Below are positions 1 to 58,354 of a stretch of DNA of 64,000 nucleotides, one piece after another. The position numbers and the translations under genes are program-made. Every line of letters starts with the position of its first letter. Within the stretch, counting starts at the first letter, position 1. The notes beneath the pieces were generated by a model. That model was not told where the DNA came from, did no database searches, and saw only the letters and a list, made by a program, of their open reading frames with translations. Source of the DNA: Kiritimatiellia bacterium (GTDB lineage Bacteria; Verrucomicrobiota; Kiritimatiellia; RFP12; JAAYLN01); contig JAZUMF010000005.1 in NCBI GenBank assembly GCA_045603485.1, positions 40,784-104,783 on the forward strand. Direction: 5' to 3'.

Positions 1-108
1 ATATGATATAGGCGCTGTCGAGGTATATGCGTTAATATTTGATAGATATGTGGAGGGTAATGATTCGGCACATTACCCTCCACACTCTCTTTCTTTTTGG
101 AGGTTTCA

Positions 109-786
109 ATGTTTGGATTGATTAAGAAGATTTTTTTTGGAGAATGCGGTTCAGATAGTGAACTGCAGGAGCGGAGGCTTGCACTTGAGCGGCTTAAGGA
201 GGTCGCTCGGGCGATTGAGTGTGATGTTGCCGTCGTTCGCGCGCGCGAGGAGCGTTTGAGGCTTGAGCGTGAGGAGAAGTTGCGTAAGGAGCGCGAGGAG
301 AGAAAGCTCGTGCTTGAAGATCGGGAGAATGCCGATACTTCGGATGTCCGTTATAGTATTAGCCGTATTTCGGGCGATAGTAGTAGATTTAGTATAGTTT
401 CAAGCCTTGTTCCAGACTATGAGAAGTATCCGCCATTCGGTATTATGCTTGCTCGAATGGTGAAGGACCGGTGCGAAAATAAGGCGAGTCTTTGCTATAG
501 GAGGGCTGGGGTTTCAAAGCAAACTTATTCGAGAATTATTTCTCAGCCGCATTCGGGTGTGAATAAGACGATCGCGATGAGGCTTTGTATTGGGCTTAAG
601 CTGTCGTTTGATGAGGCTAAGGCATTTTTGGCTACGGCAGGTTATGCCTTTTCTGATGCGATTTATGAGGATAGGGTCTTTTCATATTGCCTTCAAAATG
701 CTTTTTATAACATTCTGGATGTTGAGCAGATGATTGCTGAGATTGATAGAATTCAATCGAGGGGGAGTGTAAAAAGTCAATTGTGA
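109..786 (+). CDS. Coiled-coil protein with C-terminal XRE-type helix-turn-helix
   Basis: ORF track 97..786 begins at TTG. An in-frame ATG at 109 follows GGAGG at 99-103. The N-terminal third is a charged E/R/K-rich heptad-like coil. The C-terminal segment GVSKQTYSRI..NKTIAMRLCIGLKLSFDE matches the Cro/C1 (XRE) HTH pattern. Confidence 0.5.
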   Translation: MFGLIKKIFFGECGSDSELQERRLALERLKEVARAIECDVAVVRAREERLRLEREEKLRKEREERKLVLEDRENADTSDVRYSISRISGDSSRFSIVSSLVPDYEKYPPFGIMLARMVKDRCENKASLCYRRAGVSKQTYSRIISQPHSGVNKTIAMRLCIGLKLSFDEAKAFLATAGYAFSDAIYEDRVFSYCLQNAFYNILDVEQMIAEIDRIQSRGSVKSQL

Positions 787-881
787 ATTGACCTTTTATA
801 GGGTAAAAGGTGGTAATATAAAAGGCCTTGCACGCTTCACTCGCTAAAAAGTTTTGTTTATCGGCGCACGGAGTGCGCCTG

Positions 882-1135
882 GCGAGACAACCGGGACAAC
901 CGAGACGACCGGGACGACCGGGACAACCGGGACGACCGAGACGACCGGGACGACCGGGACGACCGGGATGACCGAGACAACCGAGACGACCGGGACAACC
1001 GAGACAGCCGAGACAGCCGGGACAGCCGGGACAGCCGGGACGAACGGGACGACCGAGACGAGTGGGACGAACGGGACGACCGGGACGACGAGACAGCCGA
1101 GACAACCGAGCGGCGAACGGGACAGGCGGGACGAA
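882..1135. repeat. Tandem 9-bp repeat array (consensus CCGGGACGA, about 28 units, degenerating at the 3' end)
   Basis: Read directly from the sequence: ccgggacaa ccgagacga ccgggacga ... in perfect 9-nt register. It lies in the convergent intergenic region between the 109..786 (+) gene and the 1151..1894 (-) gene. Confidence 0.9.
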
Positions 1136-1150
1136 TATTTTGTGGGCGGT

Positions 1151-1894
1151 TTAGATTCCTCGTATTGAGACATTTTTTACATAGTTTTCCATTATTTTAG
1201 CATAGTTTTGGAGTTCCTGCTTTGTGGGGGCGTGGAGGTTGTGGTTTGGTACGGTGTCTCTGTCTACGAAGGGTTGGAGGTAGTAGTTTTTTGCTCCTTT
1301 TATCAATTTTCCTATTGCGTGGAAGGCGTTTTCATCGTGGAATTCTTTAATGACTGTTGTGCGAAATTCGCATTCTATGATTCCGCTATTTAGTATTGAT
1401 ACGCTTTTTTCTATGGTTGATGGGTCGAGGTTTGGTTGGCCTGTTGTTTCTTTGTAGCGGTCGGGGCTGTTTTTTATGTCCATTGCCACATAGTCGAGGA
1501 GATTTTGGTCTATGAGATTTTGGAGTTTTTCTGGGTGTGTGCCGTTTGTGTCTAGCTTGACGGCGTAGCCTAGCTCTTTTATCGATTGTATGAGGGTTTC
1601 CAGATTGGGTCTTAGGAGCGGTTCGCCTCCTGTCAGGCATACTCCTTCAAGGAGTTTTTTTCGCGAGGAGAGGAAATCCAGGAGTTCACGGTCGTCCATT
1701 ATTGCCGGTGCCGTGCCGTCTATCAGCTGTGAGTTGTGGCAGAATGGGCAGCGTAAATCGCAGCCGCCTAGAAAAATTGTTGCGGCTACTTTGCCCGGGA
1801 AGTCGAGCAGGGTCATTTTTTGGAGTCCGTGTATCTGTATCACTTGATTTCTCCTGCGGGATGGTTGTCTTCTTTTTTTGTCTTTTGTCTTCAA
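1151..1894 (-). CDS. Radical SAM activating enzyme, anaerobic ribonucleotide reductase activase (NrdG)-like
   Basis: N-terminal [25 protein letters not shown] resembles the NrdG/PflA-type CxxxCxxC cluster with its preceding DxPG motif. Divergent from mreB. Confidence 0.6.
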
Positions 1895-20646: not shown

Positions 20647-21120
20647 ATGAAGTTGTTTTCTCATATTACATCCCGTAGAAGTGCGGGTTTTACATTGCCG
20701 GAGCTTTTGGCGGTCGTTTGTATTATTTCTCTTTTGATGACAGCCTCCTTTGGTGCTCTTGCGAGAGCTAGAAAGATGGCGAGAATCACTAAGGCAGAGG
20801 TACAACTGCGTGAGCTTATCAATGCCTGGACTCAGTATTACACGACATACGAGGAGTGGCCATCCAATATGGAGGGCGCGCGTGATGTTGATGCAACGGG
20901 TGTTCTTCTCGCTCCGCTAACCGACGCTAATCATGCTGACAACCCGTACGGTATTGTATTTTTGAATTTTTCGGGCTCTGGCGCATATCGTGATCCATGG
21001 GGGCAGATGTATCGGCTTTCAACGAGCTCAGGTGGTAACTCGTCATCAGGTAGAGAGAAGGGCCTTACAATTCTCGAAACGACTGTTGCTCTGCCTAAGC
21101 GTATTGTCCCAATTCCCTAA
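20647..21120 (+). CDS. Prepilin-type pseudopilin 7
   Basis: SAGFTLPELLAVVCIISLLM. Confidence 0.75.
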   Translation: MKLFSHITSRRSAGFTLPELLAVVCIISLLMTASFGALARARKMARITKAEVQLRELINAWTQYYTTYEEWPSNMEGARDVDATGVLLAPLTDANHADNPYGIVFLNFSGSGAYRDPWGQMYRLSTSSGGNSSSGREKGLTILETTVALPKRIVPIP

Positions 21121-21134
21121 TGGAAGGAATAACG

Positions 21135-24100
21135 ATGAAAAGACTTCCACAATTAGATTCTTCGCGTTCCGGCATGGCTTTGGTTATCGTGCTGGGTTTG
21201 ATTTCTCTTTTGATTATCAGTAGCGTTACCTTTGCAATTTTGATGCGCGTTGAGCGTGCGAGCTCTGCCAATGCGCGCAATACGATGATGGCGCGTCAAA
21301 TAGTCAAAGCCGCATTGTATAATTCAATTGCGACGATTAGTGCCAATATCGGAGACGCTGCTTATCCCGAATGGTATGATTTGGATAAACCTGAAAAGCC
21401 CTACTGGAAAATGTATTCGACAAGAACAGATAAGGCTTTGGGCAAGAAAGAAGGGCGCGAGATACATTTCTGGAAGGATACCTTCGGTTCTATCGATCAT
21501 AACATTGGAACAAGCCCCGAAGGTGCTCGCGCTCCAGCCTTGATAATGACATATTCCGCCGAGCGTTATTTGCCTTATGCAATTCGTCATCGTGCATACG
21601 CAAGGGCTATGTCAGAGGGCGGAAAGTCGACTGGTGGCGTTAGCGGTATCGCACCGGAGTGGATTCCCGTTGCAACAGATGCAGATGATGTCAGCAAGGA
21701 AGGCGACAGCGATCTTAATACTAATGCCAGCAAAAATCAGAATATCGTCGGCCGTTATGCCTTTATGGCATTTAACACGACGGGATATCTTGACCTTTCA
21801 GCTATGATTTCAGAATATGCAAAGGCAAAGGAAAAACCTGTGCGTTTTATGGGTACGAGCGTATCTGAGCTCTCTTTGAGCTCAGCCTTTTTCAGCAAAG
21901 AGACAACTCATCAGAAATTCATTGAGGATAATGAAAATGCCGGTCGCTATGATACGGTCGCTGAGATTCTTGACCATAATCGAAAGAATGCCGACAAAGA
22001 TGGCGAGAATGACTCCGTCTTTGCCGACGGTGCGACATTTTCGGCCTTTTCATATATGCCAAAGGAATATGCACCACACAAGTCCGATGATGTTAATGAT
22101 AAAAAAGAGAATGGCGTAGCCTTCCGTGAAAAGATTTATATAGGTAAATACGATCCGGCAACTCCGGGCGAGGAGTTTAAGGAAAAAGAAGGTCAGGTCG
22201 AGCACATTAAGAAGCACAAGGCTCGCATAATGAAGGCCTTTTATGATAGCGGACTTCGCGCTTCATCGGGAGAGTACAGGAAGAATAAGACTATTTCAGA
22301 AGCAAAGTGCGATATTTGCGGCACTGCGGCATATACTTTGCCGACCAAGTATAATTCAGAGCAGGCACTTTGGGGATATCTTGGTTTGATTGATTATATC
22401 GATGAAGACGGCGAGCCTGCCGGTGATAATGATATGGAGCGCTACGGTCGCCCCGTAACCGAGGCGTCTCCTTTATTCAACGGCTTTATGACAGTTATTC
22501 GCTTGACGCGGGGCGAAGTAGTTGAAGAAAAGGATTATGAGTTGCCCAGCGGCGCAACCGAAAAGCGCAAGGTACTCAAAAGCGGCAAGGTCGGTGTCAC
22601 TGCCGAGGTAGTTGCAAAGATGGCCTTTACCGATCGTTTCGGCGAGAATTCAGGCTCTGATTTATTTGGCGATGCTATCTACGAGGGAAAGATTGCCTTG
22701 AGGTTTGATGGGGGTAAGAAAGAAGTATGGAAGGAGGGAATTGCCGAAGCCGCCAAAACGCTCAACGGCGTAGACAAAGACTTGCTTGATGAAGGTGCAA
22801 TTGTTTGCGTCGGCGAGCTTGATGGGGAGTATCCTGATGTTCCGTTGCTTTTGATTGAAGACTTTAAGTATGAAAGTGAAGTTAATGCTGCAAGCCTTGA
22901 TGAGGTAGAATTCCCAGATATGGTTTATGCCAGTGCCGCAGCCCAGATTGAGATGATTGATGGCATCACTCAGCGTATTCCTGCCGATGAGGCTATCTAT
23001 ATAAATGAAGGGTACGAGGATTGGCTTACTGCGAGTGTCGAGCCTAAACCTTTTGAGATTCAGGGTGAGGAGAAGGTCAGGGTAAATGTCAGCGATGGGG
23101 TCGCAACCTATACTGTTACTACGAATGTCGTTCATTTGGTTATGTGGGGTGAGATGCTTGATCCTCGTTTTTATCACGCAGGAGCCTACTCCGAGACAAT
23201 GCCTAATGCCTTGCCGAAGGTTGCACTTGTAAGTCATGACGAAGATTTTGACGGCGCCGGATTTTTGGATGACTATGAAAAGCTTCCTGTCCTTCCAATC
23301 TTTAACGACATGAAGAGCTTGATGGAAAAAGGCGGGTATCAAGAGTTCATCACGGAGTTTAAAGAATTCAAAAATCCGAAAAAAGAGTATTTCGTCAAAG
23401 ACTATTTTGCAACTGCCGACCTTGATGTGGGCTACTATACAAAATTCCAAAAGGCTTTTCTTGAGAATGCATCCGATATTCTCAAGGATAAGAAATATTT
23501 TGGCGGTCACATTGACGGCTCGCATCTCGGTGTTGAGGTCGGCAAAGACAATAAGGAAACCGATACTCTCGCGAATCAGTGGTTTACGATGCATGTCAAA
23601 AATAAGCCGCTAGATACGGTGGGCGAGCTTGGTCATTTGCCGATTGGCCCATGGGCGACGATTCGTTTGACGGGTTTTGATAGTGAGGTCGCAGAGGGTA
23701 AAAAGTTTGAGAAAGACGATTTCTGGAATAACTTCAACCAGCTCCCCGAAGTGTATAGCCCTGAAGACGGCGAGGATGTGACAATGCCGTTCCATACGGT
23801 ATTAGACCATTTTACCACCCGCGGTGCCACGCGCGGTTTGATCAATTTGAATTCGCCAGATCCTGCAACCTTGGCGATGGCATTTTATGATATGCCTCTT
23901 GATACAGAGACTTTGCCTGCCGTGGACGATAAAGACTGTGATGTTATAGTGACTGATACCGATGCTGAGGATTTCGCCAGTGTGCTTCTTGATTCATGGA
24001 GTCAGCATAATGAAGACGAGGACGAGCCAGTCCCATTTTCGCGTCTCTCTCAATTAGGGTATGCCTTTGAGGCAGGTCCAGAGGTCTTAGGTGGGGTTGC

Positions 24101-24356
24101 CGAGCCTTCCAATTATTATCGCGAGGCGGCAATCCGTAATTCCTGCGGGCTCTTTACGACCCGCGGTATGACCTTTACGATTATTATGCGCGGTGAGGCA
24201 TTTACACCTACATTCGGTCGAATCGCCGTTAGCGATGAGGCCGGTACAACGCATGCAACCCGTACTGCAATAGCACAGGTTTGGCGCGATACTGAAAAGA
24301 ACGAGGACGGTATTTATCCTTTCTTTATTCAGTACTTCAAGATTCTTGACGACTAG
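21135..24356 (+). CDS. Giant GspK-like minor pseudopilin (1073 aa)
   Basis: The N-terminus GMALVIVLGLISLLIISSVTFAILMRVERASSANARN resembles the non-cleaved hydrophobic helix of GspK. It lies immediately after the seven pseudopilin genes. The rest of the protein is acidic and of unknown fold. Confidence 0.55.
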   Translation: MKRLPQLDSSRSGMALVIVLGLISLLIISSVTFAILMRVERASSANARNTMMARQIVKAALYNSIATISANIGDAAYPEWYDLDKPEKPYWKMYSTRTDKALGKKEGREIHFWKDTFGSIDHNIGTSPEGARAPALIMTYSAERYLPYAIRHRAYARAMSEGGKSTGGVSGIAPEWIPVATDADDVSKEGDSDLNTNASKNQNIVGRYAFMAFNTTGYLDLSAMISEYAKAKEKPVRFMGTSVSELSLSSAFFSKETTHQKFIEDNENAGRYDTVAEILDHNRKNADKDGENDSVFADGATFSAFSYMPKEYAPHKSDDVNDKKENGVAFREKIYIGKYDPATPGEEFKEKEGQVEHIKKHKARIMKAFYDSGLRASSGEYRKNKTISEAKCDICGTAAYTLPTKYNSEQALWGYLGLIDYIDEDGEPAGDNDMERYGRPVTEASPLFNGFMTVIRLTRGEVVEEKDYELPSGATEKRKVLKSGKVGVTAEVVAKMAFTDRFGENSGSDLFGDAIYEGKIALRFDGGKKEVWKEGIAEAAKTLNGVDKDLLDEGAIVCVGELDGEYPDVPLLLIEDFKYESEVNAASLDEVEFPDMVYASAAAQIEMIDGITQRIPADEAIYINEGYEDWLTASVEPKPFEIQGEEKVRVNVSDGVATYTVTTNVVHLVMWGEMLDPRFYHAGAYSETMPNALPKVALVSHDEDFDGAGFLDDYEKLPVLPIFNDMKSLMEKGGYQEFITEFKEFKNPKKEYFVKDYFATADLDVGYYTKFQKAFLENASDILKDKKYFGGHIDGSHLGVEVGKDNKETDTLANQWFTMHVKNKPLDTVGELGHLPIGPWATIRLTGFDSEVAEGKKFEKDDFWNNFNQLPEVYSPEDGEDVTMPFHTVLDHFTTRGATRGLINLNSPDPATLAMAFYDMPLDTETLPAVDDKDCDVIVTDTDAEDFASVLLDSWSQHNEDEDEPVPFSRLSQLGYAFEAGPEVLGGVAEPSNYYREAAIRNSCGLFTTRGMTFTIIMRGEAFTPTFGRIAVSDEAGTTHATRTAIAQVWRDTEKNEDGIYPFFIQYFKILDD

Positions 24357-44551: not shown

Positions 44552-45249
44552 CGATGGAGCATATCTTTTGCGGCTACGGCGATAGACCTGTACTCAATGA
44601 TGTCAGCCTTTCCGTTAATGAAGGTGAGGCTGTGCTGATCGCCGGGCCGAATGGCTGCGGAAAGTCTACGCTTTTGAAAGCTGTTTCAGGGGTGCTTAAG
44701 TTGTCTGCTGGCAATATCAAACTATCCGGAGAATCGCTCGCGGGACTTTCGGTCGAGCGGCGTATTCGATCGGGTATCGGTTATTTGCGCCAAAGCGATA
44801 ACATCTTTCCCGGTCAGACGGTCGAGGAGAATCTTGGGCTCGCCGGGATGATGCTTTCAAGAGCGATATATTTGTCCGCGAGAGATGAGATGTTGGAACT
44901 TTTCCCTTTTCTTAAAGCGAAACTTAACGATCGGGCAGGCTCATTATCTGGTGGGCAGCGTCAGGCACTCGCATTAGCGATGGTATTCCTAAGCCCTAAA
45001 AAGCTCTATCTTCTTGATGAGCCGACGGCAGGGCTTTCGCCTGCAGCCGCACAGGATATTATGGGTCGGGTACGTCAATTCGTGAAGGACGATGCGATGC
45101 GCTCGGTTCTTATGGTGGAGCATCGGCTTGATCTTTTGTCGTGGGTCGATCGTGCGGTCTTTCTTTCGCAGGGCAAGGTCAAATCCGAAATCGAGAATAT
45201 CGCGCTTCTTCAGGATGCCGAATGGCTCGCGAAGAATTATTTTGAGTAA
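44542..45249 (+). CDS. livF: Branched-chain amino acid ABC transporter ATPase LivF
   Basis: GPNGCGKST, LSGGQRQ, and LYLLDEP. Confidence 0.85.
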   Translation: MLLTMEHIFCGYGDRPVLNDVSLSVNEGEAVLIAGPNGCGKSTLLKAVSGVLKLSAGNIKLSGESLAGLSVERRIRSGIGYLRQSDNIFPGQTVEENLGLAGMMLSRAIYLSARDEMLELFPFLKAKLNDRAGSLSGGQRQALALAMVFLSPKKLYLLDEPTAGLSPAAAQDIMGRVRQFVKDDAMRSVLMVEHRLDLLSWVDRAVFLSQGKVKSEIENIALLQDAEWLAKNYFE

Positions 45250-45265
45250 AGTGGGAGAAGGCTGT

Positions 45266-46702
45266 ATGACGATGACACGGTTAGATGAATTACTGAGAAA
45301 CGGCGAAGGACTCGCCACAGAGTTCAAGCGGTGCTCGGGTAGAGTTGAGCACGATGTGTTTGAGTCTATCTGCGCATTCCTTAACAGGTTTGGCGGCGAT
45401 GTGTTACTTGGGGTCGAGGATGACGGGACTGTTGTCGGGATAAAAGGCGATCCGGTCGCATTGCGCAATAATATTATGAATATTGCGAATGACGGGAATG
45501 TTTTTGATCCGGTTGCATATATCGCGCCTGAGATTGTCGAGTATGATGGTAAGACGATTATCAGTGTTCATGTTCCTGCAAGCGGCGAGATTCATGCTTA
45601 TAAGGGCGTTGTTTATGATCGCAACGGCGATGCGGATGTGCGTGTGCGCTCGACGGCGGCCAAGGGTATGATGTTGCTGCGCAAACAGGGTGTTTTCACT
45701 GAACAGCGGATATATCCGTATGTTACAAAGGCCGATTTGAATCTTGCCGATCTAAAGCGGCTTCGCATTCGTGCGCAGAATAACAGCCGTGATGAAAGCC
45801 GCCATCCGTGGATGGATATGGATGATGATCAGCTTCTGCGTAGTGCCAAGCTGGTTGGCACAGATCGTGAATCTGGTAAGAGTGGTTTTAACCTTGCGGC
45901 CGTTATGCTGCTTGGAACGGAAGATGTTATAAAAGATATTTGCCCCGCATATGTTACGGATGCCATTTTGCGTGTTAAAGACATTGATCGTTATGACGAT
46001 CGCGATGTGGTCGGTGTTAATTTGATTGCGGCATACGACAGATTGATGGATTTTGCGAGAAAGCATCTTCCGGATCCGTTTTTTCTTGAAGGGGATATCC
46101 GTAAAAGTCTTCGTGAAATTATCGTCCGTGAAATGGTGGCAAATACGCTCATTCATCGCGAATTTACGAGTTCGCGCCCGGCGCGGTTTGTCATTGAACG
46201 CAGCCGAATGTATGTTGAGAATGCATGTCGAGCATCCTGCGGTGATGCATTGACGCCCGAGAATTTTGTCCCCGACCCAAGAAATCCCATAATAGCCAAC
46301 TTCTTCAGGGTGATTGGCTACGCTGACCAACTCGGCTCTGGTGTTAGGAATCTTTTCAAGTACGCCAAGGCATACGGCGGTTCTGATCCTAAGTTGAAGG
46401 ACGGAGACATATTTCGGATTGAGGTGTCGCTTCAGTCTGTAAAGGTGGGGGCGACTATGGAGAAAATGTCTGCTACTAGGGAGAAAACTAGGGAGGAAAC
46501 GACAGCTACTAGGGAGAAAACTAGGGAGAAAATCATTGCCTTCCTTTCAGATCATCCAAGTGCTACACAGGATGTCATAGCGAATTCGGTAGGGTTGTCA
46601 GTGAAAGGTGTGGAGTGGAACATAAAGGCGTTGAAGGATTCAGGACGCATCCGCCGTGTTGGCCCAGACAAAGGTGGACATTGGGAGGTTGTCTCGCAAT
46701 GA
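45266..46702 (+). CDS. AlbA_2 (Schlafen-like divergent AAA) / HATPase_c_4 / winged-helix ATP-binding regulator
   Basis: The N-terminus RLDELLRNGEGLATEFKRC...GGDVLLGVEDDGTVVGI matches the AlbA_2 (AAA_4) fold pattern. A C-terminal wHTH is present. An internal tandem duplication reads ATREKTREETT/ATREKTREK. Confidence 0.55.
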   Translation: MTMTRLDELLRNGEGLATEFKRCSGRVEHDVFESICAFLNRFGGDVLLGVEDDGTVVGIKGDPVALRNNIMNIANDGNVFDPVAYIAPEIVEYDGKTIISVHVPASGEIHAYKGVVYDRNGDADVRVRSTAAKGMMLLRKQGVFTEQRIYPYVTKADLNLADLKRLRIRAQNNSRDESRHPWMDMDDDQLLRSAKLVGTDRESGKSGFNLAAVMLLGTEDVIKDICPAYVTDAILRVKDIDRYDDRDVVGVNLIAAYDRLMDFARKHLPDPFFLEGDIRKSLREIIVREMVANTLIHREFTSSRPARFVIERSRMYVENACRASCGDALTPENFVPDPRNPIIANFFRVIGYADQLGSGVRNLFKYAKAYGGSDPKLKDGDIFRIEVSLQSVKVGATMEKMSATREKTREETTATREKTREKIIAFLSDHPSATQDVIANSVGLSVKGVEWNIKALKDSGRIRRVGPDKGGHWEVVSQ

Positions 46703-48077: not shown

Positions 48078-49199
48078 ATGAAGATTAAGAAGAACCTGTT
48101 ACTGGTCGTTATCCCAACGGTCACTGTTTTGGCATTTGTCATATTTTTTGCATGCCGAAACAGACAACCAGCTTCTGCCGATAATGCTGTCCAAGTTGGT
48201 GTGATTCTGCCTTTGACGGGCTCGCTTGGATATGAAGGAACTCGTATGAAAGATGCGATGGACTTGGCATTGTCCCAATTAGATGGTGAAAAACAACAAT
48301 GTTTAAAACTCAATTACGAAGACGGGAAGTTTTTGGTTCGCGATTCCATATCGGCGTTCAACAAATTAAACGAGAAGGGGATGGATGCATGGGTCATTTT
48401 TGGTGATACGCCGTTGTTAGGCATGAAAACTTTACTTGAGAAGACTGGAAAACCAGTTTTGTGCCTCATTGGAGCTCAGGATCTAGTCAAAGATTCGCAA
48501 ACGTTCTTCCATTTTTCGGGATCTATAACGTTGCCGGCTATTGAGAATGCTAAGTTTGCCAAGCGCAAGGGCGTGAAGACGGTCTCTTTAATTTATTTAA
48601 ATGAACAGATTGGTTTGGAGGTGAAGGGTGCTTTTGAACGGGAGTTTATAGACGAAGCACATAAGGTAGTCGCGTCAGAGGGATTTGACATGGGGCAACG
48701 AGCAATGAAGAGTTTGGTTGCGAAAGCTATTGCGCCTAATCCTGACGCAGTATTTGTTTATGGATATGCGACTCCATATATTGAAATCTTAAACGAAATA
48801 AAAAATGTTGGCTACCGTGGAATTGTTTTGACAGATGGAAATCTTGCCGCTGTAAAACCCGATCTTATCGATGGTGGGGAGGGCGTTTGGTATGCAGATT
48901 TTGATTTTGGCGATGGATGTGAGAACCCAGAGACTAAAAAGTTTCTGCATGACATGCATGACATCTATGGGGAGACTGCGAGTTCCTTTTCCGCATTTGC
49001 CTATGAAACGGTACGTGTGCTGTCGACAATTATCCATGATAAGGGTAAAACCCCTGCCGATATTCATAGCGGATTGTTGGCAATTAAGGACTACCACTCT
49101 ATTTTTGGTGTGATATCGTATCGTGACAATAGGGAACTTGAAATCCCAGTAGTGATTAAAAAGGCAACACGGGATAGCGCACAAGTTGTTAATGATTAA
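48078..49199 (+). CDS. Leu/Ile/Val-binding-protein-like periplasmic binding protein (ABC substrate-binding or sensor PBP)
   Basis: N-terminal TM/signal anchor, then a type-I PBP fold pattern (VQVGVILPLTGSLGYEG...). It lies immediately upstream of the giant gene and is coupled to it. Confidence 0.75.
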   Translation: MKIKKNLLLVVIPTVTVLAFVIFFACRNRQPASADNAVQVGVILPLTGSLGYEGTRMKDAMDLALSQLDGEKQQCLKLNYEDGKFLVRDSISAFNKLNEKGMDAWVIFGDTPLLGMKTLLEKTGKPVLCLIGAQDLVKDSQTFFHFSGSITLPAIENAKFAKRKGVKTVSLIYLNEQIGLEVKGAFEREFIDEAHKVVASEGFDMGQRAMKSLVAKAIAPNPDAVFVYGYATPYIEILNEIKNVGYRGIVLTDGNLAAVKPDLIDGGEGVWYADFDFGDGCENPETKKFLHDMHDIYGETASSFSAFAYETVRVLSTIIHDKGKTPADIHSGLLAIKDYHSIFGVISYRDNRELEIPVVIKKATRDSAQVVND

Positions 49200-49212
49200 G
49201 GAGGCTCCGCTC

Positions 49213-52200
49213 ATGGATGCAGGACCGGATGCACAGCATGGTGTAAATACAGGCGTTGTGGAATCCAAATACTATGTGGATGTATGGTTGCCGGACGCTA
49301 AAGACTATCCGGGGTTGAGAGGAGCAAGTCCCAAAGTCCAAGAGGCATTGGGTCTAGGCCTTGGACTTCCAGATAAACCTACAGTTGTTCCACTTGGTGA
49401 AATAGAAATTAATCTTAAGCCTCGGTTCTATAAGCGAAACGAAAAGAATCTTGATATTGATAGTGAATCGGTCGCGGCCATTTCGTTTTCGGAAGATTTC
49501 GCGAAGCAGTGTAATTCCAATGATGTGGCCGTTCTTGCAATGATGGGTGGGGTTCTTCCTGCAGGGAAGAATTTCTTTAGAATGGGTTTTTCCGTTGAAA
49601 CTATTGCGGCCATCATTGGAGATCAGATTATTAATGATAATGACGGACGGGTGTCTCATGTTTTTTTGATTCGTGTGGATAATGATCTTGGAAATGAATT
49701 TGAACGAGCATTCTCAAGGGCGGTGAATGCCCCAAACCAAGGGCGTTCTTTGGATATACTCAAGATTGATGAGAACGGTACCCCCATTACTAAGAAGATA
49801 CAAATTACGCCGACGGACGAACAGGTGGCACGGAATACCTCAACGAATGAGGGTGTTATTAGTAAATGGTTGACTAGTTGTATTAAAAATCCGGAACACC
49901 CAAGAAATCAAGGCCTGAGATCTGTTGTCATATATGGATATTGGGAGCAATATTGGAATTTCGTAATAGAAGTATTAAGATGCAAAGCCTTTTGTAACGA
50001 CGAAGATTGGTTATATGTTGAGTCAAATTACCCGCTACATTATCCCTTTATTCTTTATGAAGCACGACATGTAGATGATTTAGATCAAGATGATTTGCAA
50101 AATTTTACTAAAGAACGCACTGATGATATTATTCCGAGATCGGTGGAAATTACGAGTTCGGGAAAAAATAATAAAAGGATAATGGGAGATAAAAAACAAG
50201 AGAAAACAGGAGGTGAAAGTCCAGAGAAACCGCCGGAGAGTGTGTTTCACCCTCAGAAGGGGAATTTGCAAAACAACAATGAAGACGAAAGGGATTTCAA
50301 TATATTTAATGAAAAGAAAATGGCTCATGCGAGTACGATAGCTCATGCGATCAAGAATAGGGATGAACCTGAAGAAGAGCATCAAAAAGAATCTAAGGAA
50401 CTCAGTCAAGAAAAGCTTATGCCGAGGGAACTTAAGCGAATTCGTTGTATAACGGGTAGACTCGTTAATGATGGTGAAAGTAGTTTCATTACATTTGCGA
50501 AGGAAACGGTTCGCCTGCTTCGTGCTGCTATTAGGGACGCTCATGAAAAAAAGGGAAAAGCGCAAGATCGGACCATCAAATCTATACGAGAATGCATATG
50601 CAAGTTTTTGGCAAATAGTAAGTTCTATGCAGCGGAACATCTAGGGTCTTTCTTTTTTCGAAAAGATGGTGAATTGTTTTTCCCTCTCTACCTCTATAAC
50701 GGAAAGCTTGAGCGACAAAGAATCGTCAGAGAGTCTTGTTGTAAGGGTGATGAATTCACAAAGGAGGCTATAGCCGATCAATTACTACAACTATCTAATT
50801 CTCTGAACAAGATAACGCGGGCTGAAATCCCCCGCAACCTTAAGGTAGGCAATTCGGATGGTGCTAAGAAGGTATTTGAGGAATTCAGTAAAATAATTGC
50901 TGACATCTCAAAGGGAATTGAGATTAAGTTTGTAAGCTATTATCCTAATACAGAGCACCTGTTCTATACATGGACAGATACGCAGGAGGGAAATGTTGAT
51001 AAGACGGAGCGATTTATCAATGTTAGCATTTTTGATGATGTTTGTAAAAAAATACAAGGTGTAATCCAGATTAACTTAAAAGATTTTGATTTGGAAGATA
51101 ACGATGCATATAGAGTATATTTGGTCTACGAGAGGACTGAAAAAGTTTTTGATGCATTAACTCTGGCGGAGTGGTGGAATACACAAAGCAATGATTGCCA
51201 GGCGACGATTATAGCTGGGAATAAAGGTTGGGAGAGATGTCTATTGCCTGTTAAGGCGGTTGTGTTTGCCAAATCAAGGATTGGGAAACAAGACGGTCAG
51301 ACGGATGAGGGTATGTCTGAAAACGAGTATAAAGATATTATAGACAATGCCAATTATGCACACTACTACCGCGACTGCGACGGCCATGAAAGCAAGTTCA
51401 AGTTTGATGAGATTTTAAGTGGTCTTTGTAAACTTCTTGGGTGTAGTGGAGACAACGGCAATTCAGAATCAGATGCCCGTTTTTTATATTATATTCCTGA
51501 ATATATTCCGGAAGACAACAAACCTGAAGGCAATAATAGTTACAAGATAGGTGGGCAAGGCGGAATCGTTATGGCGACTTGTTGCAAGTTGTCTTTGTTT
51601 GATTTGCAAATTGTTGAGAATATGGTCTCCCACATTTTTTCTAAGCTAAAAACATGTTTGGCAGAACATGATGTCCTCCTTTCAAATATAAAATCTGCCA
51701 TTGGCTCCATAATGTCTCGCAATGGTTCTCATAACATTGGTAGCCATGTATTGGCGGCACTGTCGCACAATGTGGGAACATTGCCGGATGATAGGGTGTT
51801 ATATCAGTATATTCAGCAGCGGATGGATTATATTGCAACGGTGACGACGGACTTTCCGACATGGACGCAACCGACAATGTTTGTAGCCGATATGATGAAA
51901 ACTTTTTTATCGCAGAGGCATTTATTAGATCATATTGTGGAGAGCGAAGGGTTGCATGCATTTCAGTTTCAAAATCCTAATATGACGGATGAGGAGTGGG
52001 CGGCTCAAGAAAACTGTGTAAAGATTTATGTTAGGAAGTTAGATGGTGATGGAAGTGTAAAGGACTTCATTGAATATGAAAAGGGTAAACGAGAACTTCC
52101 CATTGATTTGACTAATGATGTTGATTTAGCAATTCCCGGGGGAATAATTGGTGAACATGCGTTCTATACGATTCTTGAAAATATAATTCGGAATGCCGCG

Positions 52201-54687
52201 AAACATTCTTGGGCGAAGATTAAACAATGGCAAATAAGGCAAAACGAAATTGAGTTGCAGTATAATAATTTGGAGCTTTTCATTGATTTTGAAGAAAAGG
52301 ATGATGAGGTTAAGTATAACGTTTATGCAAAGTTGCCGATGGCTCAGGTAGTTGTGGAAAAATCTAAAGCTGACAATAAATTATGTCAGAAGGTGATTGC
52401 TTCAGAACAACTGATTAAATGGAAGGAAAAGTTTGATGATATGGGTGTAGTGAAAGCAAAGGAGGAAAATGCTTTTAAGGAGCTGCCAGATTATGAACAG
52501 GAACAGGTCAAACTACATTTGGCTAATCTCAAAGACGATCCACTTAAAAAATGGGTAGATAGATATGACAAACAAGGCGGATTGACATCTGATGAGCAGA
52601 AGGAGTTTGATTCATTGGCGATTCATCATAAGCAACAAGTTATGTTGGCGAGGCCTTTTATTGATTCGCAGGGAGCACTTCGTCGTGAGAATTGGGGTAT
52701 GGCAGAAATGAAGATATCGGCAGGATATCTCGCTGGCGAATCTATTGAGGCGATAGGGGGTATTGGAGACAAAAAAGGAAGTAATGAAATTATAACGCCA
52801 CGCATCAAATCAGAAAAGGTCAAGAGGAAATGTATAGAATCAGGGGAAAAAGTAACAGAAATTGAGGTCGAAGAACTATATTTAGGCTATGAATTTTCTA
52901 TTGCCAAACCCAAGGAAATATTGATTATAGTTGCGGAGGAGCTGAATAGGGAAGGAAAAGACGATGAATGGGGTAGTGAAAATATTCGTAATGAATTAAA
53001 AAAGCATGGGATTTTTGTTAAGACAGTTAGCGAGATAAAACAGGAGAACCGTCTTAATTACAGGTATGTAGTTCATTATAATGCACGTGAGTTGTTTGAT
53101 AAAAATTATCATGTTAAAGATGATGTTTTATTGCCGTTTAGAGTGTTAAGTGTGGCGGATATTGAGGATGAAAGGCTTAAAGATTTTATTCCGACAATAG
53201 ATATAAGTAAACTAAAAGAGTGTTTCGAGAAGGGCACTGAAGATCCGAAAAACGGAATTCAAAAACTTGTCTACGATACTTATCTTAAACATTTTTTGTC
53301 ACAACGGAGTGTAGATAATATTGGTCTTTTGGTTGCGATAAATGAAAATGAGAAATCTGGCGGAAATAGTTTGATTTCGGATGCGGATATTCTTGAATTG
53401 ATGCTTGAGCAGAATTTTGCTGTGTGCGTAGCTCAATACAAGGAATTTGCAGCTAACGAAGATAAGATTATTAAGTGTTTAGAATCGATTCGTCATAAAA
53501 GTAGTGCTAAAGATACAGTAATAAAGTTTAAGCACTTCTCAAATAAGACGATAAGGGAATTGATTGCACAACGTATGTGCGATTGGGCTGGAAAGTCTAA
53601 TGATTCATGGATTCCAATAGTTGAACATTTGCGTAAAAAGTATTTCGTATCAGATGCTGAGAGCGAAACTTCCAATGAGCTTAAGCCAAGTAATAATGAA
53701 ATATCAGTTGATTTTGCAGCAAGTGTAAATTCTCTGTCGCAAAAACATCCGATTGATGATTTTATCCGTTATGTGGAATCGATTTTTGAAAATACAAAGA
53801 AACTGTTTAAACAGTATGAAGAGCAGATTGTGACGTTGCCGGCAGGGTATAAGGTTCAATCTTCTGATGTTGGAGAAGGGGCGTCGCTTATAGACGGGAT
53901 TAAGATTATTACATCAGCAGAGAAAGAAGAACTTGAAAAAGAAAAAGATCGCCACTGGATTGGGTATCGCCGTCATGCTCATACGCTACCTGTTGATGAT
54001 TCCAAGAGACTTTATGTTGAGCCGTTAAGCGGAACTCAGACATACTTGTCACAATTGGCGAGAGTAAAAACCGATCTTGGATTGCAAATGCGTCTTATAG
54101 AAAATGGCCTTATGCGTATTCTTGTTCTTGATGAACGAGTTGCGAAGTTCCTTCGTGAGCATCAAAAGGAAGTTGGCCCGCATTATAAGTCGATGAATAT
54201 CCATGTCATTGATCACGAATGGGTTGTTGCTGGTGGAGAAACTCCTCCTGAGGGTTTTTACGGAAAGTTTACTTCTGTGCACAAAGAAGCGTTGAAATCA
54301 TTTGTAAAACCGAAAGATTCTAATGATGGTGAGAATAACCAAAATGGGAATGCCGATGTGAGCTCGAATTCGAACCTTACTATGTTTGATGATGTTGACA
54401 TCTTAATCGTTCATCAGGGGATTCTGGATAAATGGTACCCTGAATTCAAAAATCGTAAGGATATGTGGAAGTTATTGGAAGGGTTCAAGAAATTAGTGAA
54501 ATATGTTGTCGTGACTACTGGTCGAGGGACTCCGGAGAACATACCTGAAGAGACTCATCTGTTGCCGTTCGCCGTCGTTGAATCTACACTCTTTAAGAAA
54601 TATCCAGAGAAGTTGATCTTAACAGATACTATCATGAATGTCCTTCCTGTTGGGAAGAAGAACGACAACTCTGGAGGCCAAAAATGA
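49213..54687 (+). CDS. Giant (1824 aa) cytoplasmic protein with a histidine-kinase-type GHKL ATPase N-box and a degenerate receiver-like C-terminus; AT-rich
   Basis: ATG 49213 lies 10 nt after AAGGAGG, which overlaps the PBP stop. N-box-like LENIIRNAAKHS at about 52176-52210. An upstream H-rich motif SRNGSHNIGSHVLAALSH at about 51712-51765. C-terminus RILVLDERV...DILIVHQGILD...YVVVTTGRG. No Walker A and no TM helices found. The nucleotide composition is visibly AT-rich compared with the flanks. Confidence 0.6.
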   Translation: MDAGPDAQHGVNTGVVESKYYVDVWLPDAKDYPGLRGASPKVQEALGLGLGLPDKPTVVPLGEIEINLKPRFYKRNEKNLDIDSESVAAISFSEDFAKQCNSNDVAVLAMMGGVLPAGKNFFRMGFSVETIAAIIGDQIINDNDGRVSHVFLIRVDNDLGNEFERAFSRAVNAPNQGRSLDILKIDENGTPITKKIQITPTDEQVARNTSTNEGVISKWLTSCIKNPEHPRNQGLRSVVIYGYWEQYWNFVIEVLRCKAFCNDEDWLYVESNYPLHYPFILYEARHVDDLDQDDLQNFTKERTDDIIPRSVEITSSGKNNKRIMGDKKQEKTGGESPEKPPESVFHPQKGNLQNNNEDERDFNIFNEKKMAHASTIAHAIKNRDEPEEEHQKESKELSQEKLMPRELKRIRCITGRLVNDGESSFITFAKETVRLLRAAIRDAHEKKGKAQDRTIKSIRECICKFLANSKFYAAEHLGSFFFRKDGELFFPLYLYNGKLERQRIVRESCCKGDEFTKEAIADQLLQLSNSLNKITRAEIPRNLKVGNSDGAKKVFEEFSKIIADISKGIEIKFVSYYPNTEHLFYTWTDTQEGNVDKTERFINVSIFDDVCKKIQGVIQINLKDFDLEDNDAYRVYLVYERTEKVFDALTLAEWWNTQSNDCQATIIAGNKGWERCLLPVKAVVFAKSRIGKQDGQTDEGMSENEYKDIIDNANYAHYYRDCDGHESKFKFDEILSGLCKLLGCSGDNGNSESDARFLYYIPEYIPEDNKPEGNNSYKIGGQGGIVMATCCKLSLFDLQIVENMVSHIFSKLKTCLAEHDVLLSNIKSAIGSIMSRNGSHNIGSHVLAALSHNVGTLPDDRVLYQYIQQRMDYIATVTTDFPTWTQPTMFVADMMKTFLSQRHLLDHIVESEGLHAFQFQNPNMTDEEWAAQENCVKIYVRKLDGDGSVKDFIEYEKGKRELPIDLTNDVDLAIPGGIIGEHAFYTILENIIRNAAKHSWAKIKQWQIRQNEIELQYNNLELFIDFEEKDDEVKYNVYAKLPMAQVVVEKSKADNKLCQKVIASEQLIKWKEKFDDMGVVKAKEENAFKELPDYEQEQVKLHLANLKDDPLKKWVDRYDKQGGLTSDEQKEFDSLAIHHKQQVMLARPFIDSQGALRRENWGMAEMKISAGYLAGESIEAIGGIGDKKGSNEIITPRIKSEKVKRKCIESGEKVTEIEVEELYLGYEFSIAKPKEILIIVAEELNREGKDDEWGSENIRNELKKHGIFVKTVSEIKQENRLNYRYVVHYNARELFDKNYHVKDDVLLPFRVLSVADIEDERLKDFIPTIDISKLKECFEKGTEDPKNGIQKLVYDTYLKHFLSQRSVDNIGLLVAINENEKSGGNSLISDADILELMLEQNFAVCVAQYKEFAANEDKIIKCLESIRHKSSAKDTVIKFKHFSNKTIRELIAQRMCDWAGKSNDSWIPIVEHLRKKYFVSDAESETSNELKPSNNEISVDFAASVNSLSQKHPIDDFIRYVESIFENTKKLFKQYEEQIVTLPAGYKVQSSDVGEGASLIDGIKIITSAEKEELEKEKDRHWIGYRRHAHTLPVDDSKRLYVEPLSGTQTYLSQLARVKTDLGLQMRLIENGLMRILVLDERVAKFLREHQKEVGPHYKSMNIHVIDHEWVVAGGETPPEGFYGKFTSVHKEALKSFVKPKDSNDGENNQNGNADVSSNSNLTMFDDVDILIVHQGILDKWYPEFKNRKDMWKLLEGFKKLVKYVVVTTGRGTPENIPEETHLLPFAVVESTLFKKYPEKLILTDTIMNVLPVGKKNDNSGGQK

Positions 54688-55280
54688 AATATTATGTCTT
54701 TATCGCAAGAGACGAGGAAGAGTTTTCGCGCTATCCTCAAAGTGGGTTTCAGGAGCTGAAGAGGGATTTTGCAAAAACGATTCGCCATAAGGAGATGGGA
54801 GACTCATATTTATTGATTATATCAAGCGATGTGAAGCCTAAGAATGCAGAATCGGATGAAGATGTTAAGATGATGTGTTTTAAGGTTGCAGCTGCGATAA
54901 AGTTAGTAAATACAAATTACGATTATGCAGCAGGTAATGATTGTGTGCATATTTTTGTTCATGTGGGTGGAGAAGGTAGTTGTGGCTTAGGGAAAATGGA
55001 GGAAAGTCTAAAAAAGAAGGTTGGAGAAATAAAGGAAAATTGGAAAGTTTTTCTTTTAAGTTCAAGCTGGCGCTGGAGAATTGATGTCAAGCAGTCTATG
55101 ATTAGATTGCCTAATAGAGAAGGGGAACTTGATGTTCTTGTAAAGCGGTGCGAGATGGACATTGCCGCTGAGATTTTAAAAGGATTTAAGGCTCGTTATA
55201 GTACTACTGAGAAAAAAGATTGCTATGATAAAATCTGTGAAAAGCTTTCCATTGTTAAGATTGAGGAGAAGAGAAAATGA
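54684..55280 (+). CDS. Small hypothetical protein (198 aa), possibly a degenerate receiver/flavodoxin-like fold
   Basis: ATGA overlap with the upstream and downstream genes. Alternating beta-alpha pattern: YYVFIARDEE, YLLIISSD, VHIFVHVGG. No recognisable catalytic motif. Confidence 0.45.
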   Translation: MKYYVFIARDEEEFSRYPQSGFQELKRDFAKTIRHKEMGDSYLLIISSDVKPKNAESDEDVKMMCFKVAAAIKLVNTNYDYAAGNDCVHIFVHVGGEGSCGLGKMEESLKKKVGEIKENWKVFLLSSSWRWRIDVKQSMIRLPNREGELDVLVKRCEMDIAAEILKGFKARYSTTEKKDCYDKICEKLSIVKIEEKRK

Positions 55281-58200
55281 GCAATGGCAGAAAATTAAAT
55301 CTTTTTATTTTTGACTTGGCACAGCATGGAGAACTGACAAACCTAGTACTGTGGCAAGTAGCTAAGATGTTTGAGATGAGGTGTGGTATCTGTGTTGCTT
55401 CTTATTCATGGTGTGCGCCTTTAAAGAAAGAGAAATTTATTCCTCTATTTCTTTGCAATTCGTATGATGAGATTAGGGCGCATGGTTTTAATGTGCCAAG
55501 AGAATTTGTCTTTGAGGTTGGATTGAATCCTAATCCTAATTATATTGATGATCCAGATAATCAACCAGAGATGTTGTGTGAGATCTTAGGGGATAAGATA
55601 GAAGATCGGTTAAGTCTGTATAAGGAGTTAGAAATAGGTGTAAGTTTTGAGGATGTTAAAGACTGGTGTGTCGGTGCGTTTCGTAGATATTTGTTTATGG
55701 ATGATGATGTTCACGGAACATCGGGGACTTTTTCTATTTCGGAATTAATGAAATGCAACAAAGAAACAGGCTTGAATGTTGATGATAAATATTGGCAAAA
55801 ATGGTTTGGGGAATTCGGTGATGACAAAAATAAATTTAACAGAGAGATGTTGCGGGCTAGATTCGGAGTTGGCGTGAAAAATTCAAGTGACAGTACAACG
55901 CAAAATCCAAAGGAAGATGATCCGCTCAGAAATTATAAGGATGTATTGTCGGTTGTGTTTGAGGAAGAATTTAGGTGCATAAAAGCAGACGTTATTGAGA
56001 ATCCGGGCGAAAGCTATCAAAGAGTAAAAGATTTTTTTGAGAAGAAGTTTCCAAGTCAGCAAGGTCTTGCATTAAAATTTATTTCTCCATGCGGAAAGAT
56101 ACGTGTACTTGTTGTAGATGATAATGCTACAGCCGAAGTTGAAAGTCTTAAAAGTAAAGAATCGTTGTCTAATATTTTTGATTTTGCTCCGTTGGATTTG
56201 AAGAAGCGAGATGATGAATCTTCGAATCAGTTTATAAAAAGATCCATAGGCGAGATAAAAAATAAATCTAAGGAATGTGTTGATGTAATTTTATTAGATC
56301 TAAGCTTAGGCGAGGCGACAGGTTCTGATTTGACTGGCTATCATCTGATTAAGAGATTTAAGCAATGGATGCCGACGGCCTATATCATTATTTATTCTGA
56401 ACATGAGGATATGGGGCATATTGTTCGTGCGTTCAGAGAGGGTGCCGATTGGTTTTTGAAAAAGAGCGAAGCTCAAGAAAAACTTGCGCGTCATTTTATT
56501 TCGTTGATGGCGAATCGCAAATGGAGAAAAGAATTCGGCGTCATCAGACCGAAATATGTTCTTGATATAAAAGGCAAGGATGAAAATTTTATCGCCAAAT
56601 TCAATGTAAAAGAGGTATGGCAATATTTGACAATAAAAAGTCTGGAATTATTGCCGGGACATTATATCAAGATAAATAAGATGGGGGGCGGTATCAGTTC
56701 GGCTGTCACATTCCGAGCGCAGAAAGGCATTACAAGAGATACTGAAGATAATCAGGCGCCCGTAATCATCAAGATAGATTCTGTTTTTAATACGAGGATG
56801 GAATATGAGCGTTATTTCCGCTTCATTCGACCGTATATTGCCAATGAGTCGGGGCGGATAGAGAAGCGTGAAATAGTTCTCAATAGGGATAGCGCCGCGA
56901 TTGTTTATACATTTACAGGGCGGCGAGATGCTGCACATGAACTTAACACCTTGGACGAACTGCTGCGCCGCGATATGTTATCGCGTGAAACTTGCGATTA
57001 TGAAAAATATCGCAAGATGTTTAATGCGCTGTTTGATGAGATCACAGCGCGTCTGCACAGGGTGACTCCAGTCGCAGAATTCAGGGATTTAAAGACAGAT
57101 CCGGAAGAGTTGTCGGAGTTTTCTGATTATCCCAATCGCACATTTGGAGAATTGGAGAGTGATTCTATATCATCCTCCGATCAAGGTCATAAATCTTGGT
57201 TTTTCTCGAATTTTACATATAGAATGCCGATAGAGAGTGTTGCTGAAAAGTTTATAATAAGTGAAGGCTCAAGCAATCCGAATGAGGTATATGAAGTTTA
57301 TGGTATCCAGAAGGATGACTTAGGTAAGAATTCCGCTAAATACCCTTATACTTATGTTATTGAATGTCAGCGATATAAGATTAAAACTGAAAATGATAAT
57401 AAAGAGTTGCATCAAAAGGTGTTGCTGAAAGGCGATTTAGCGTCATATTACGCCCGTTTTAGGACACATCTTTGGCCGGGAATGTTGCTGTCGATAAAAC
57501 TGGGGGAAGGTCAAACATTAAATGAGAACGAACTTATGTCTTGGTGCTTTTGTTTCTGCGCCAATAAGAATTTATATCAAATCCGCGCTGAAAAGACAGA
57601 AGATGGCTCTAAACAAGAGGGATGTTTCCGGATATCTAAAAAGCTTTATAATAAGATGGCCGGATGGTTTAAGGATAAAGAAAACCGATACTTAATAACA
57701 GTTCGTGACGCGCTGAAAAAACTTGTCGATGAGGAGCCGCACAGATTTGTGTGTCCGGTTGGTATTGTGCACGGCGATTTAAATCTTAAGAACATTATGA
57801 TTGAATCCCGGGTCAATCCACCGAAAGAAATTCAAGCAGACATAACGAAGGTTTTGTCTGATGTGTGGCTTATAGACTTTGCTCGGACGCGGCGAGATGT
57901 CGTAGCACATGATTTCAATGTCGCTTTTACATCAGTACTTCCGTTGCTCTTTCAGCCGGATCTCGTTGGGACGCATGAGAAGGGTAAACCGTTTGAGCAG
58001 AATGATGAGCAGAAGAAATACGTCGAAGAATTAGATGAAAAACTTGAACCGTATTTGCGCCATGTTCTCTTTGACAAGTATGATACTTTGTCGGATTTGT
58101 TTGCGGAAGATCAGCGACTTGTTTTCATGTACAAGATATTAAGAAGAATCCGTAAAGCGGCACTTGCGACGGGGATGTCGGAGGATATGTATCTACTGAC

Positions 58201-58354
58201 GACAGCACTGACATGTTTGTATTCGTTTAAACTGTATTTAAAACAAGGAATGCCGGAAGCCGCAACAGCACTTGTAATGGCGGGATTGCTTTGCGTGGAG
58301 AAGTTGAATCCGCCAGATGACTGTTTCGAAGCATCTAATCAGAAAACATTATGA
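55277..58354 (+). CDS. Receiver (REC) domain fused to a eukaryotic-like Ser/Thr protein-kinase-like domain (1025 aa)
   Basis: REC: VLVVDDN (56101-56127), VILLDLSL, IIIYSEHED, DWFLKKS. Kinase: G-loop KMGGGISSAV, beta3 VIIKI, catalytic loop HGDLNLKNIMI (57769-57803), and DFG-like LIDFARTR. Confidence 0.7.
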   Translation: MSNGRKLNLFIFDLAQHGELTNLVLWQVAKMFEMRCGICVASYSWCAPLKKEKFIPLFLCNSYDEIRAHGFNVPREFVFEVGLNPNPNYIDDPDNQPEMLCEILGDKIEDRLSLYKELEIGVSFEDVKDWCVGAFRRYLFMDDDVHGTSGTFSISELMKCNKETGLNVDDKYWQKWFGEFGDDKNKFNREMLRARFGVGVKNSSDSTTQNPKEDDPLRNYKDVLSVVFEEEFRCIKADVIENPGESYQRVKDFFEKKFPSQQGLALKFISPCGKIRVLVVDDNATAEVESLKSKESLSNIFDFAPLDLKKRDDESSNQFIKRSIGEIKNKSKECVDVILLDLSLGEATGSDLTGYHLIKRFKQWMPTAYIIIYSEHEDMGHIVRAFREGADWFLKKSEAQEKLARHFISLMANRKWRKEFGVIRPKYVLDIKGKDENFIAKFNVKEVWQYLTIKSLELLPGHYIKINKMGGGISSAVTFRAQKGITRDTEDNQAPVIIKIDSVFNTRMEYERYFRFIRPYIANESGRIEKREIVLNRDSAAIVYTFTGRRDAAHELNTLDELLRRDMLSRETCDYEKYRKMFNALFDEITARLHRVTPVAEFRDLKTDPEELSEFSDYPNRTFGELESDSISSSDQGHKSWFFSNFTYRMPIESVAEKFIISEGSSNPNEVYEVYGIQKDDLGKNSAKYPYTYVIECQRYKIKTENDNKELHQKVLLKGDLASYYARFRTHLWPGMLLSIKLGEGQTLNENELMSWCFCFCANKNLYQIRAEKTEDGSKQEGCFRISKKLYNKMAGWFKDKENRYLITVRDALKKLVDEEPHRFVCPVGIVHGDLNLKNIMIESRVNPPKEIQADITKVLSDVWLIDFARTRRDVVAHDFNVAFTSVLPLLFQPDLVGTHEKGKPFEQNDEQKKYVEELDEKLEPYLRHVLFDKYDTLSDLFAEDQRLVFMYKILRRIRKAALATGMSEDMYLLTTALTCLYSFKLYLKQGMPEAATALVMAGLLCVEKLNPPDDCFEASNQKTL

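Follow-up and report, generated by a model that had tools for sequence, protein, structure and literature searches.

The stretch of DNA analysed here, 64 kb in length and referred to throughout as the window, carries a long tandem array of 9-bp units between two convergent genes, and it raises the question of what such an array represents directly behind nrdG, the gene for the activase of the anaerobic ribonucleotide reductase. The initial annotation had offered several answers, namely a mutable contingency element, a pseudo-coding artefact with a collagen-like reading of one strand, and a 3'-UTR structural element.

The array occupies positions 882-1135 and comprises approximately 27 head-to-tail copies, with 27 RGAC cores in total (Table 1). 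On the minus strand, which is the sense strand of nrdG, the unit takes the form YYGTCYCGG. About 28 copies in perfect register had been described at the outset; the array itself is real, but the register holds for 23 units only, after which 4-5 degenerate units follow. The transition is an 8-bp unit at 1080-1088/1089, in which a 1-bp deletion shifts the register by one base; beyond it lie two units, the 11-nt CCGAGCGGCGA and two terminal units ending in ACAGGCGGGAC, which together bring the array to position 1135. TRF reports a period of 9 with 22.7 copies at 886-1089 and a period of 18 with 13.8 copies at 886-1134. The two-unit degenerate pattern CCGRGACRRCCGRGACRR, with up to two mismatches allowed, gives 23 matches, all of them inside 882-1134, against 0.11 expected from dinucleotide-preserving shuffles; the tandem array is real and far above chance. 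Its G+C content is 69%, compared with 48% for the window, and T occurs just twice in its 254 nt on the plus strand. A search of the 64-kb window for further arrays of the CCGRGACRR pattern returned none, which leaves a single array. The point variants are those described initially, i.e., G or A at position 4 and GA, AA or AG at positions 8-9. The term minisatellite is less apt, because the MLVA convention places units under 10 bp among the microsatellites (PMC10174486) and the 9-bp unit falls just below that threshold; this is a matter of naming only.

Table 1. Position in the window of the array, its bracketing elements and its two flanking genes.
Feature	Coordinates	Strand	Description
Convergent left neighbour	109-786 (or 97-786)	+	225/229 aa; weak Cro/C1-type HTH match
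T-rich stretch directly left of hairpin	845-862		AAAAAGTTTTGTTTATC; TTTTGWTTATC conserved in every left-hand context
GC hairpin	863-879		GGCGCAC-GGA-GTGCGCC, perfect; bounds the far end of the array
Array core	882-1088		23 perfectly registered 9-bp units; plus-strand consensus CCGRGACRR
Degenerate nrdG-proximal array end	1089-1135		8-bp unit, 11-nt variant CCGAGCGGCGA, terminal motif ACAGGCGGGAY
Tail between array and nrdG stop codon	1136-1150		ATATTTTGTGGGCGGT-like; T-run of T4 to T8 by strain
NrdG-type radical-SAM activase (anaerobic ribonucleotide reductase)	1151-1843	-	230 aa; Pfam Radical_SAM, Fer4_12

Both flanking ORFs end facing the array (97/109-786 on the plus strand, 1151-1843/1894 on the minus strand), as the initial annotation had recognized. 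The array starts 15 nt past the stop codon of nrdG, which begins with a GTG codon preceded by an AGGAG Shine-Dalgarno sequence; a longer ORF form spans 1151-1894. Homologues of the protein carry the name anaerobic ribonucleoside-triphosphate reductase activating protein, and the 230-aa gene was called in all related contigs. Beyond nrdG lies the mreB-mreC-mreD-PBP2-rodA-RNase G operon, transcribed away from it. At the opposite end of the array, the hairpin and the TGGCGGGAC that follows it are 100% identical in 10 of 10 distinct complete alleles, whatever the left context, and the hairpin plus the first array unit do not vary between strains. Segments of 56 nt containing this hairpin fold at -15.3 and -18.2 kcal/mol, with z about -2. 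The T-run at 1139-1142 and that within 845-862 both vary in length by strain, the latter from T4 to T9.

Two other elements near these genes were observed. At window positions 43-84, just upstream of the start of the HTH gene, there is a long hairpin, GGAGGGTAATG-ATTCGGCA-CATTACCCTCC, with the pyrimidine-rich tail ACACTCTCTTTCTTTTT; it resembles a terminator, and judging from its sequence, terminators of this type, a hairpin with a T-rich tail, may be in use elsewhere in the organism. The 5' region of nrdG, in the nrdG/mreB gap, contains at 1865-1895 a T-rich 7-bp repeat (TTGTCTT / TTTTTTGYC) just upstream of the Shine-Dalgarno sequence, which varies by strain through indels of whole units and through T-run length, with an extra TTTTTTTGCC in contigs L003, L006, L007, and L222. 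Unlike the 9-bp array, this repeat is placed where a change of length could affect expression.

For a comparison of strains, we recovered 17 same-species contigs from independent metagenomes by an exact MreB look-up and by NrdG variants of 95-97% identity; among them are 13 with distinct repeat regions and 10 distinct complete alleles, and their nrdG genes are 94-97% identical in DNA sequence. Samples containing the species include SRR24653902, SRR24653905, SRR32918232, and SRR13180949. The array and the hairpin are found in every same-species contig that reaches the site, with a shared layout of T-rich stretch, hairpin, TGGCGGGAC, array, ACAGGCGGGAY, T-run, GGCGGT, and nrdG stop codon. The terminal motif ACAGGCGGGAY is conserved, and both this motif and the CCGAGCGGCGA variant were found again in most strains. 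Measured from the hairpin to the last core, the complete alleles are 253, 72, 89, 153, 175, 129, 99, 92, 171, and 72 nt long, and contigs that end inside the array reach at least 196 nt. Copy number, for which identical values in all related genomes had been expected of an inert repeat, differs between these arrays of 72-253 nt, and the differences among same-species strains support the description of the array as mutable. Each strain has its own scatter of units or spacings of 8, 11, 18, 20, 26, and 29 nt, array length modulo 3 takes the values 0, 1 and 2, and even strains with a flank divergence of only 0.6-2.7% arrange their unit variants in different orders. Among the contigs spanning the site, no strain was found that had lost the array; at least five units are present in all 13 distinct repeat regions and at least seven in the 10 complete ones, despite a flank divergence of approximately 4%.

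The tempo of these changes can be judged from the flanking genes. In three groups of contigs, the nrdG and mreB DNA matches at all 1719 nt. Two of these groups (L009 = L010 and L226 = L227 = L228, all from different samples) also have identical arrays, and in the third (L223 and L224) the arrays and the tails both differ. Every pair of strains with 10 or more differences in the 1719 flanking nt has different arrays. The comparison of strain pairs thus indicates that the array changes much faster than point substitutions accumulate. Exact repeats internal to the assembled arrays are in all cases no longer than 28 nt and can be traversed at k=31, so longer or more homogeneous arrays are probably under-sampled (ascertainment bias); the same assembly limit would explain why four contigs (L005, L007, L008, and L224) stop inside the array.

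Strains carry different DNA left of the hairpin, while the array, the hairpin, and nrdG stay together. In contigs L002 and L003 the place of the HTH gene is taken by a Cas12a-Cas4-Cas1-Cas2 locus with a CRISPR array, and L004 has yet another context; the HTH gene is therefore not part of the element. Since the hairpin and the array abut nrdG whatever lies on the left, the module belongs to the nrdG side, and the hairpin marks the edge of a variable genomic region. The CRISPR-Cas locus, which is of type V-A (L002:1-5010; L003:1-1790), stands at the same position as window 1-860; its CRISPR repeats end in AATTTCTACTGTTGTAGAT, and a few tens of bases separate the end of the locus from the conserved hairpin.

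Outside this species the array was not encountered. No such array adjoins the gene at any of approximately 90 loci with nrdG homologues. The next-closest NrdG (67% identity) lies in a different gene context and is followed by an A/T-flanked hairpin terminator, with no 9-bp array. In contigs of this relative (L131-L140, final 15-50 nt), nearly all of the Logan contigs stop within 50 nt past the stop codon of the nrdG homologue, at the hairpin TTTTTTGCC-NNN-GGCAAAAA, the loop of which is TAC or GGA depending on the sample; L131 also has a 16-bp duplication (CCATTGTTGCCAA..). A scan of metagenomes with the NrdG protein, which reached relatives of up to 59% identity only and served as a negative control, gave a tandem array adjoining nrdG in 0 of 80 loci (NrdG homologues of 45-59% identity). 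The closest non-self relatives of MreB (88-89% identity) are annotated as Kiritimatiellae bacterium, and the Kiritimatiellae relatives with 79-89% identical MreB have neither nrdG upstream of mreB nor the array. The junction pattern GGCGCACGGAGTGCGCCTGGCG had 0 matches in JGI metagenome contigs and IMG/VR, and exact-protein look-ups of the NrdG, PBP2, and HTH protein of the window returned no record. A three-unit pattern searched in genome contigs gave, among the matches listed, single occurrences mostly in high-GC genomes (Streptomyces and other Actinomycetota). As far as the data reach, the array is confined to one species-level lineage.

Variation within the unit was counted over 127 in-register units from the 13 distinct repeat regions. 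Position 1 is C in 90 units, A in 21, G in 13, and T in 3; position 2 is C in 117 and T in 10; position 3 is G in 126 and A in 1. At position 4, G (68) and A (59) are both frequent, position 7 is C in 124 and T in 3, position 8 is A in 74 and G in 51, and position 9 is A in 84 and G in 42. Variation is concentrated at the purine positions 4, 8 and 9, all six combinations of position 4 with positions 8-9 are common, and CCG and GAC are almost invariant. This near-invariance may be due to constraint or may merely record the history of which variants were amplified. The two CpGs of the unit behave in opposite ways, with G3 almost invariant and G8 hypervariable, so a simple deamination bias does not explain the pattern, and a simple strand-biased deamination signature was rejected.

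Could the array encode a repetitive protein? Three candidate chains were considered: the collagen-like Gly-X-Y chain of G-R-P / G-C-P triplets on the minus strand noted initially, a Thr-rich TTG/TTE chain on the plus strand, and a Val-Pro-rich chain on the minus strand. The G-R-P / G-C-P reading does exist, and in this one strain the minus-strand ORF 632-1105 that contains it scores 33.9 bits against Pfam Collagen (PF01391), above the cutoff of 27.2. The match is one of composition alone, which is insufficient for membership. The ORF overlaps the 3' end of the HTH gene by approximately 150 nt and has as its start a TTG inside the array. The initial annotation had all three repeat frames open on both strands; five of the six are, and one plus-strand frame is closed by a TGA at 969-971, which a GGGATGA variant creates. 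With one strand nearly free of T and the other of A, open frames arise automatically and are not evidence of coding. In addition, units of 8, 11 and 20 bp shift the frame inside the arrays, and together with lengths of 0, 1 or 2 modulo 3 they leave no reading frame conserved on either strand; the suggestion of a pseudo-coding artefact is borne out by the loss of the Gly-X-Y frame between strains through such units. One gene caller placed a 65-aa ORF on the incomplete array of L005, but gene callers left the array uncalled in 10 of 10 contigs spanning it whole. The collagen-like, Thr-rich, and Val-Pro-rich readings were rejected, since the frame is not kept between strains, and a protein-coding array is almost certainly the wrong explanation.

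At the RNA level, the placement of the array in the 3' untranslated tail of nrdG, as initially proposed, holds, but the structure suggested for it does not. The region 840-1160 folds no better than its shuffles (z of +0.86 for the minus strand and +0.08 for the plus strand), and the nrdG-proximal array end, folded on the plus strand, does so less well than shuffled sequence (z of +1.3 to +2.0). No match to Rfam 15 reached the gathering score; the best lenient match, Guanidine-II, scores 12.3 bits (gathering score 32; E = 6.4), which is chance level, and is caused by the string GGGACGACC. The absence of Rfam matches and the fold z-scores of 0 or above rule out a structured RNA. A terminator scan found none at the hairpin and none between the nrdG stop codon and the array, and thus no intrinsic terminator of nrdG. 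What follows the hairpin at 863-879 is UGGCGAGAC on the plus strand and GAUAAACAAAAC on the minus strand; lacking a U-tract on either, the hairpin is not a canonical intrinsic terminator, and this candidate was rejected for both strands. The T-run at 1139-1142 has no hairpin preceding it.

Several known kinds of element were also considered and rejected. A G-quadruplex is generally expected at G4Hunter values of approximately 1.2 or more. The array has a mean of 0.35 and a maximum of 0.96 in a 25-nt window, with a single canonical motif, at 1019-1048, and 46% of the units have GAG, not GGG. The units abut without spacers, unlike those of a CRISPR array, and the true Cas12a CRISPR repeats in L002 are quite different. 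A dispersed REP-like hairpin does not agree with one copy in 64 kb, and a match with up to two mismatches arises by chance in 16 of 100 shuffles. Against a sponge sRNA of the CsrB/RsmZ type stand an upstream context that is not conserved, the lack of a terminator hairpin, and the lack of stable loops; GGA is absent from 46% of the units.

Elsewhere in the window, an in-frame coding repeat, ACTAGGGAGAAA (T-R-E-K; period 12/33), occurs at 46454-46532 inside ORF 45092-46702 and is unrelated to the 9-bp array. Very large ORFs without an NCBIfam match are found at 49186-54687 (1833 aa), 21120-24356, and 55277-58354, among others. The window also shows a strand bias, G exceeding C on the plus strand in 77% of 78-nt windows; because this skew covers the minus-strand gene nrdG as well, it follows the DNA strand, probably through replication, and not transcription.

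Which functions might such an untranslated array serve? It is possible but doubtful that the array acts as a rut-like Rho-loading 3' UTR. By this account, the untranslated (YYGUCYCGG)n RNA would let Rho load past the nrdG stop codon, where the ribosomes are released, transcription would stop near the conserved GC hairpin, which would protect the 3' end, the convergent HTH gene or CRISPR locus would be shielded from antisense read-through, and copy number would be free to drift while about 80 nt or more remain. In terms of the C>G and YC-spacing descriptors of Rho sites (PMC6407284, PMC6144790), C exceeds G on the minus strand in 211 of 211 78-nt windows in the array (mean +9.2%, C/G 1.04-1.83), YC accounts for 34% of dinucleotides in the array but 13% in the coding sequence of nrdG, and [(YC)N9-13]6 chains have 44 start positions. 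However, C>G is not specific to the array, being found in the same 77% of minus-strand windows in 64 kb and in a region from 834 to 1902 that spans the whole nrdG gene, and the array RNA is not G-poor (G 29%, with GG 7.7% of dinucleotides), GG/CGG motifs, which are negative predictors in PMC6144790, occurring in every unit. The poor folding of the array RNA and the lack of an intrinsic terminator for nrdG both suit Rho loading, as does the GC-rich downstream hairpin without a U-tract, which matches the pause-hairpin architecture of RhoTermPredict except that its loop has 3 nt against the 4-8 nt expected. The shortest distance from the nrdG stop codon to the hairpin in the 10 complete alleles, approximately 90 nt, is just above the Rho loading site of approximately 78 nt; a rut site, on the other hand, needs no tandem repeat. 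The persistence of the array, the invariance of CCG and GAC, and the ~90-nt minimum hint at a selected role and are not predicted by a neutral model. In our assessment it is unlikely that the array is a selected, length-tolerant module that would provide at least ~80-90 nt of unstructured, A-free, pyrimidine-rich RNA between the nrdG stop codon and the invariant hairpin. Such RNA would be a Rho-loading site built from repeats or a platform for an RNA- or DNA-binding protein, and the module would insulate nrdG from the variable island on its left, whether HTH gene, Cas12a CRISPR, or other DNA. Selection on the module would explain both why no array was lost and why CCG and GAC are invariant while three purine positions vary.

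Ribbon-helix-helix partition and repressor proteins of the omega/ParR type bind tandem repeats of 7-11 bp, and CsrB and RsmZ are GGA-rich sponges. By analogy, the array might serve as a protein-binding platform, either as DNA for a ribbon-helix-helix-type protein or as a GGA-rich sponge made from the plus strand. The near-invariant CCG and GAC with positions 4, 8, and 9 free among purines look like a degenerate binding motif, and the array persists in all strains. We consider a platform very unlikely, though, given that the 64 kb contain a single array and related species have none, that no linked gene present in every strain offers a candidate for the bound protein (L002-L004 lack the HTH neighbour), and that a plus-strand RNA would be without a conserved promoter, the left context being different from strain to strain, and without a hairpin before the T-run that would end it; moreover, 46% of the units read GAGAC, without GGA. 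Also very unlikely is a phase-variable contingency locus, in which units would be gained or lost frequently and the expression of nrdG or its neighbour would thereby be switched among the members of a population. Copy number does differ between strains, L223 and L224 combine identical flanks with different arrays, and the contig breaks inside the array (L005, L007, L008, and L224) could reflect heterogeneity within a sample, but assembly at k=31 would be expected to break at any tandem repeat, and independent samples of the same strain have identical arrays in two of three groups. The suggestion of a contingency element also fails on position: with stop codons at 786 and 1151, both genes have the array on their 3' side, outside any promoter, 5' UTR, or coding region, and a change of copy number therefore cannot switch a promoter or a reading frame.

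The explanation that we favour as probable is a VNTR, a hypervariable tandem repeat without coding function, which in one uncultured Kiritimatiellae species occupies the untranslated tail of nrdG. Bacterial VNTRs form a well-known class that evolves mainly by replication slippage (PMC10174486). The array described here would expand, contract, and reshuffle by replication slippage or by unequal recombination between units, and, with no terminator between the nrdG stop codon and its first unit, it presumably forms the 3' UTR of the nrdG transcript. The repeats themselves most likely lack any sequence-specific function, and selection would act on the bracketing hairpin and perhaps on some minimum length of the untranslated spacer. 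The array is useful as a marker with high power to tell apart strains of an uncultured Kiritimatiellae lineage of the gut or rumen type, and it is a warning to annotators, as it produces a false collagen-like ORF that passes a Pfam threshold and breaks short-read assemblies. If a functional reading were true, it would be a termination or insulation element built from tandem repeats at the edge of a variable island, which is not a new principle.

The locus can be placed among known systems as follows. It shares with the contingency loci of Neisseria, Haemophilus, and Campylobacter a slippage-prone tract and length polymorphism between strains; however, the tracts of those loci lie in promoters or 5' coding regions and act as on/off switches, whereas this array is 3' of both genes and shows no within-strain variation in two of three testable cases. 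With bacterial collagen-like genes (PF01391) it has in common the 9-bp period, G-X-Y in one frame, and a Pfam score above threshold, but it is not a member, having a frame that is not conserved, no credible start, and an ORF that overlaps a neighbour. It resembles Rho-dependent terminators in its untranslated, C>G, YC-rich, and poorly structured RNA directly past a stop codon, after which a GC hairpin without a U-tract follows; in contrast, known rut sites are G-poor and are not tandem repeats, while the array here has 29% G and a C>G bias common to the whole strand. Like the VNTRs used in MLVA (Xanthomonas, Mycobacterium, and Yersinia), it consists of short head-to-tail units between unique conserved flanks, differs in copy number and variant order between strains while being stable within a strain, and has degenerate ends around a dynamic interior, and its evolution is likewise deduced to be by replication slippage (PMC10174486). 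Compared with the usual VNTRs, it is unusually long, GC-rich, and almost T-free on one strand, it occurs in an uncultured Kiritimatiellae lineage, and it is invariably coupled to the stop codon of nrdG and to a hairpin that is strictly conserved. It is, in these respects, an ordinary variable tandem repeat of a well-known class in a poorly studied phylum.
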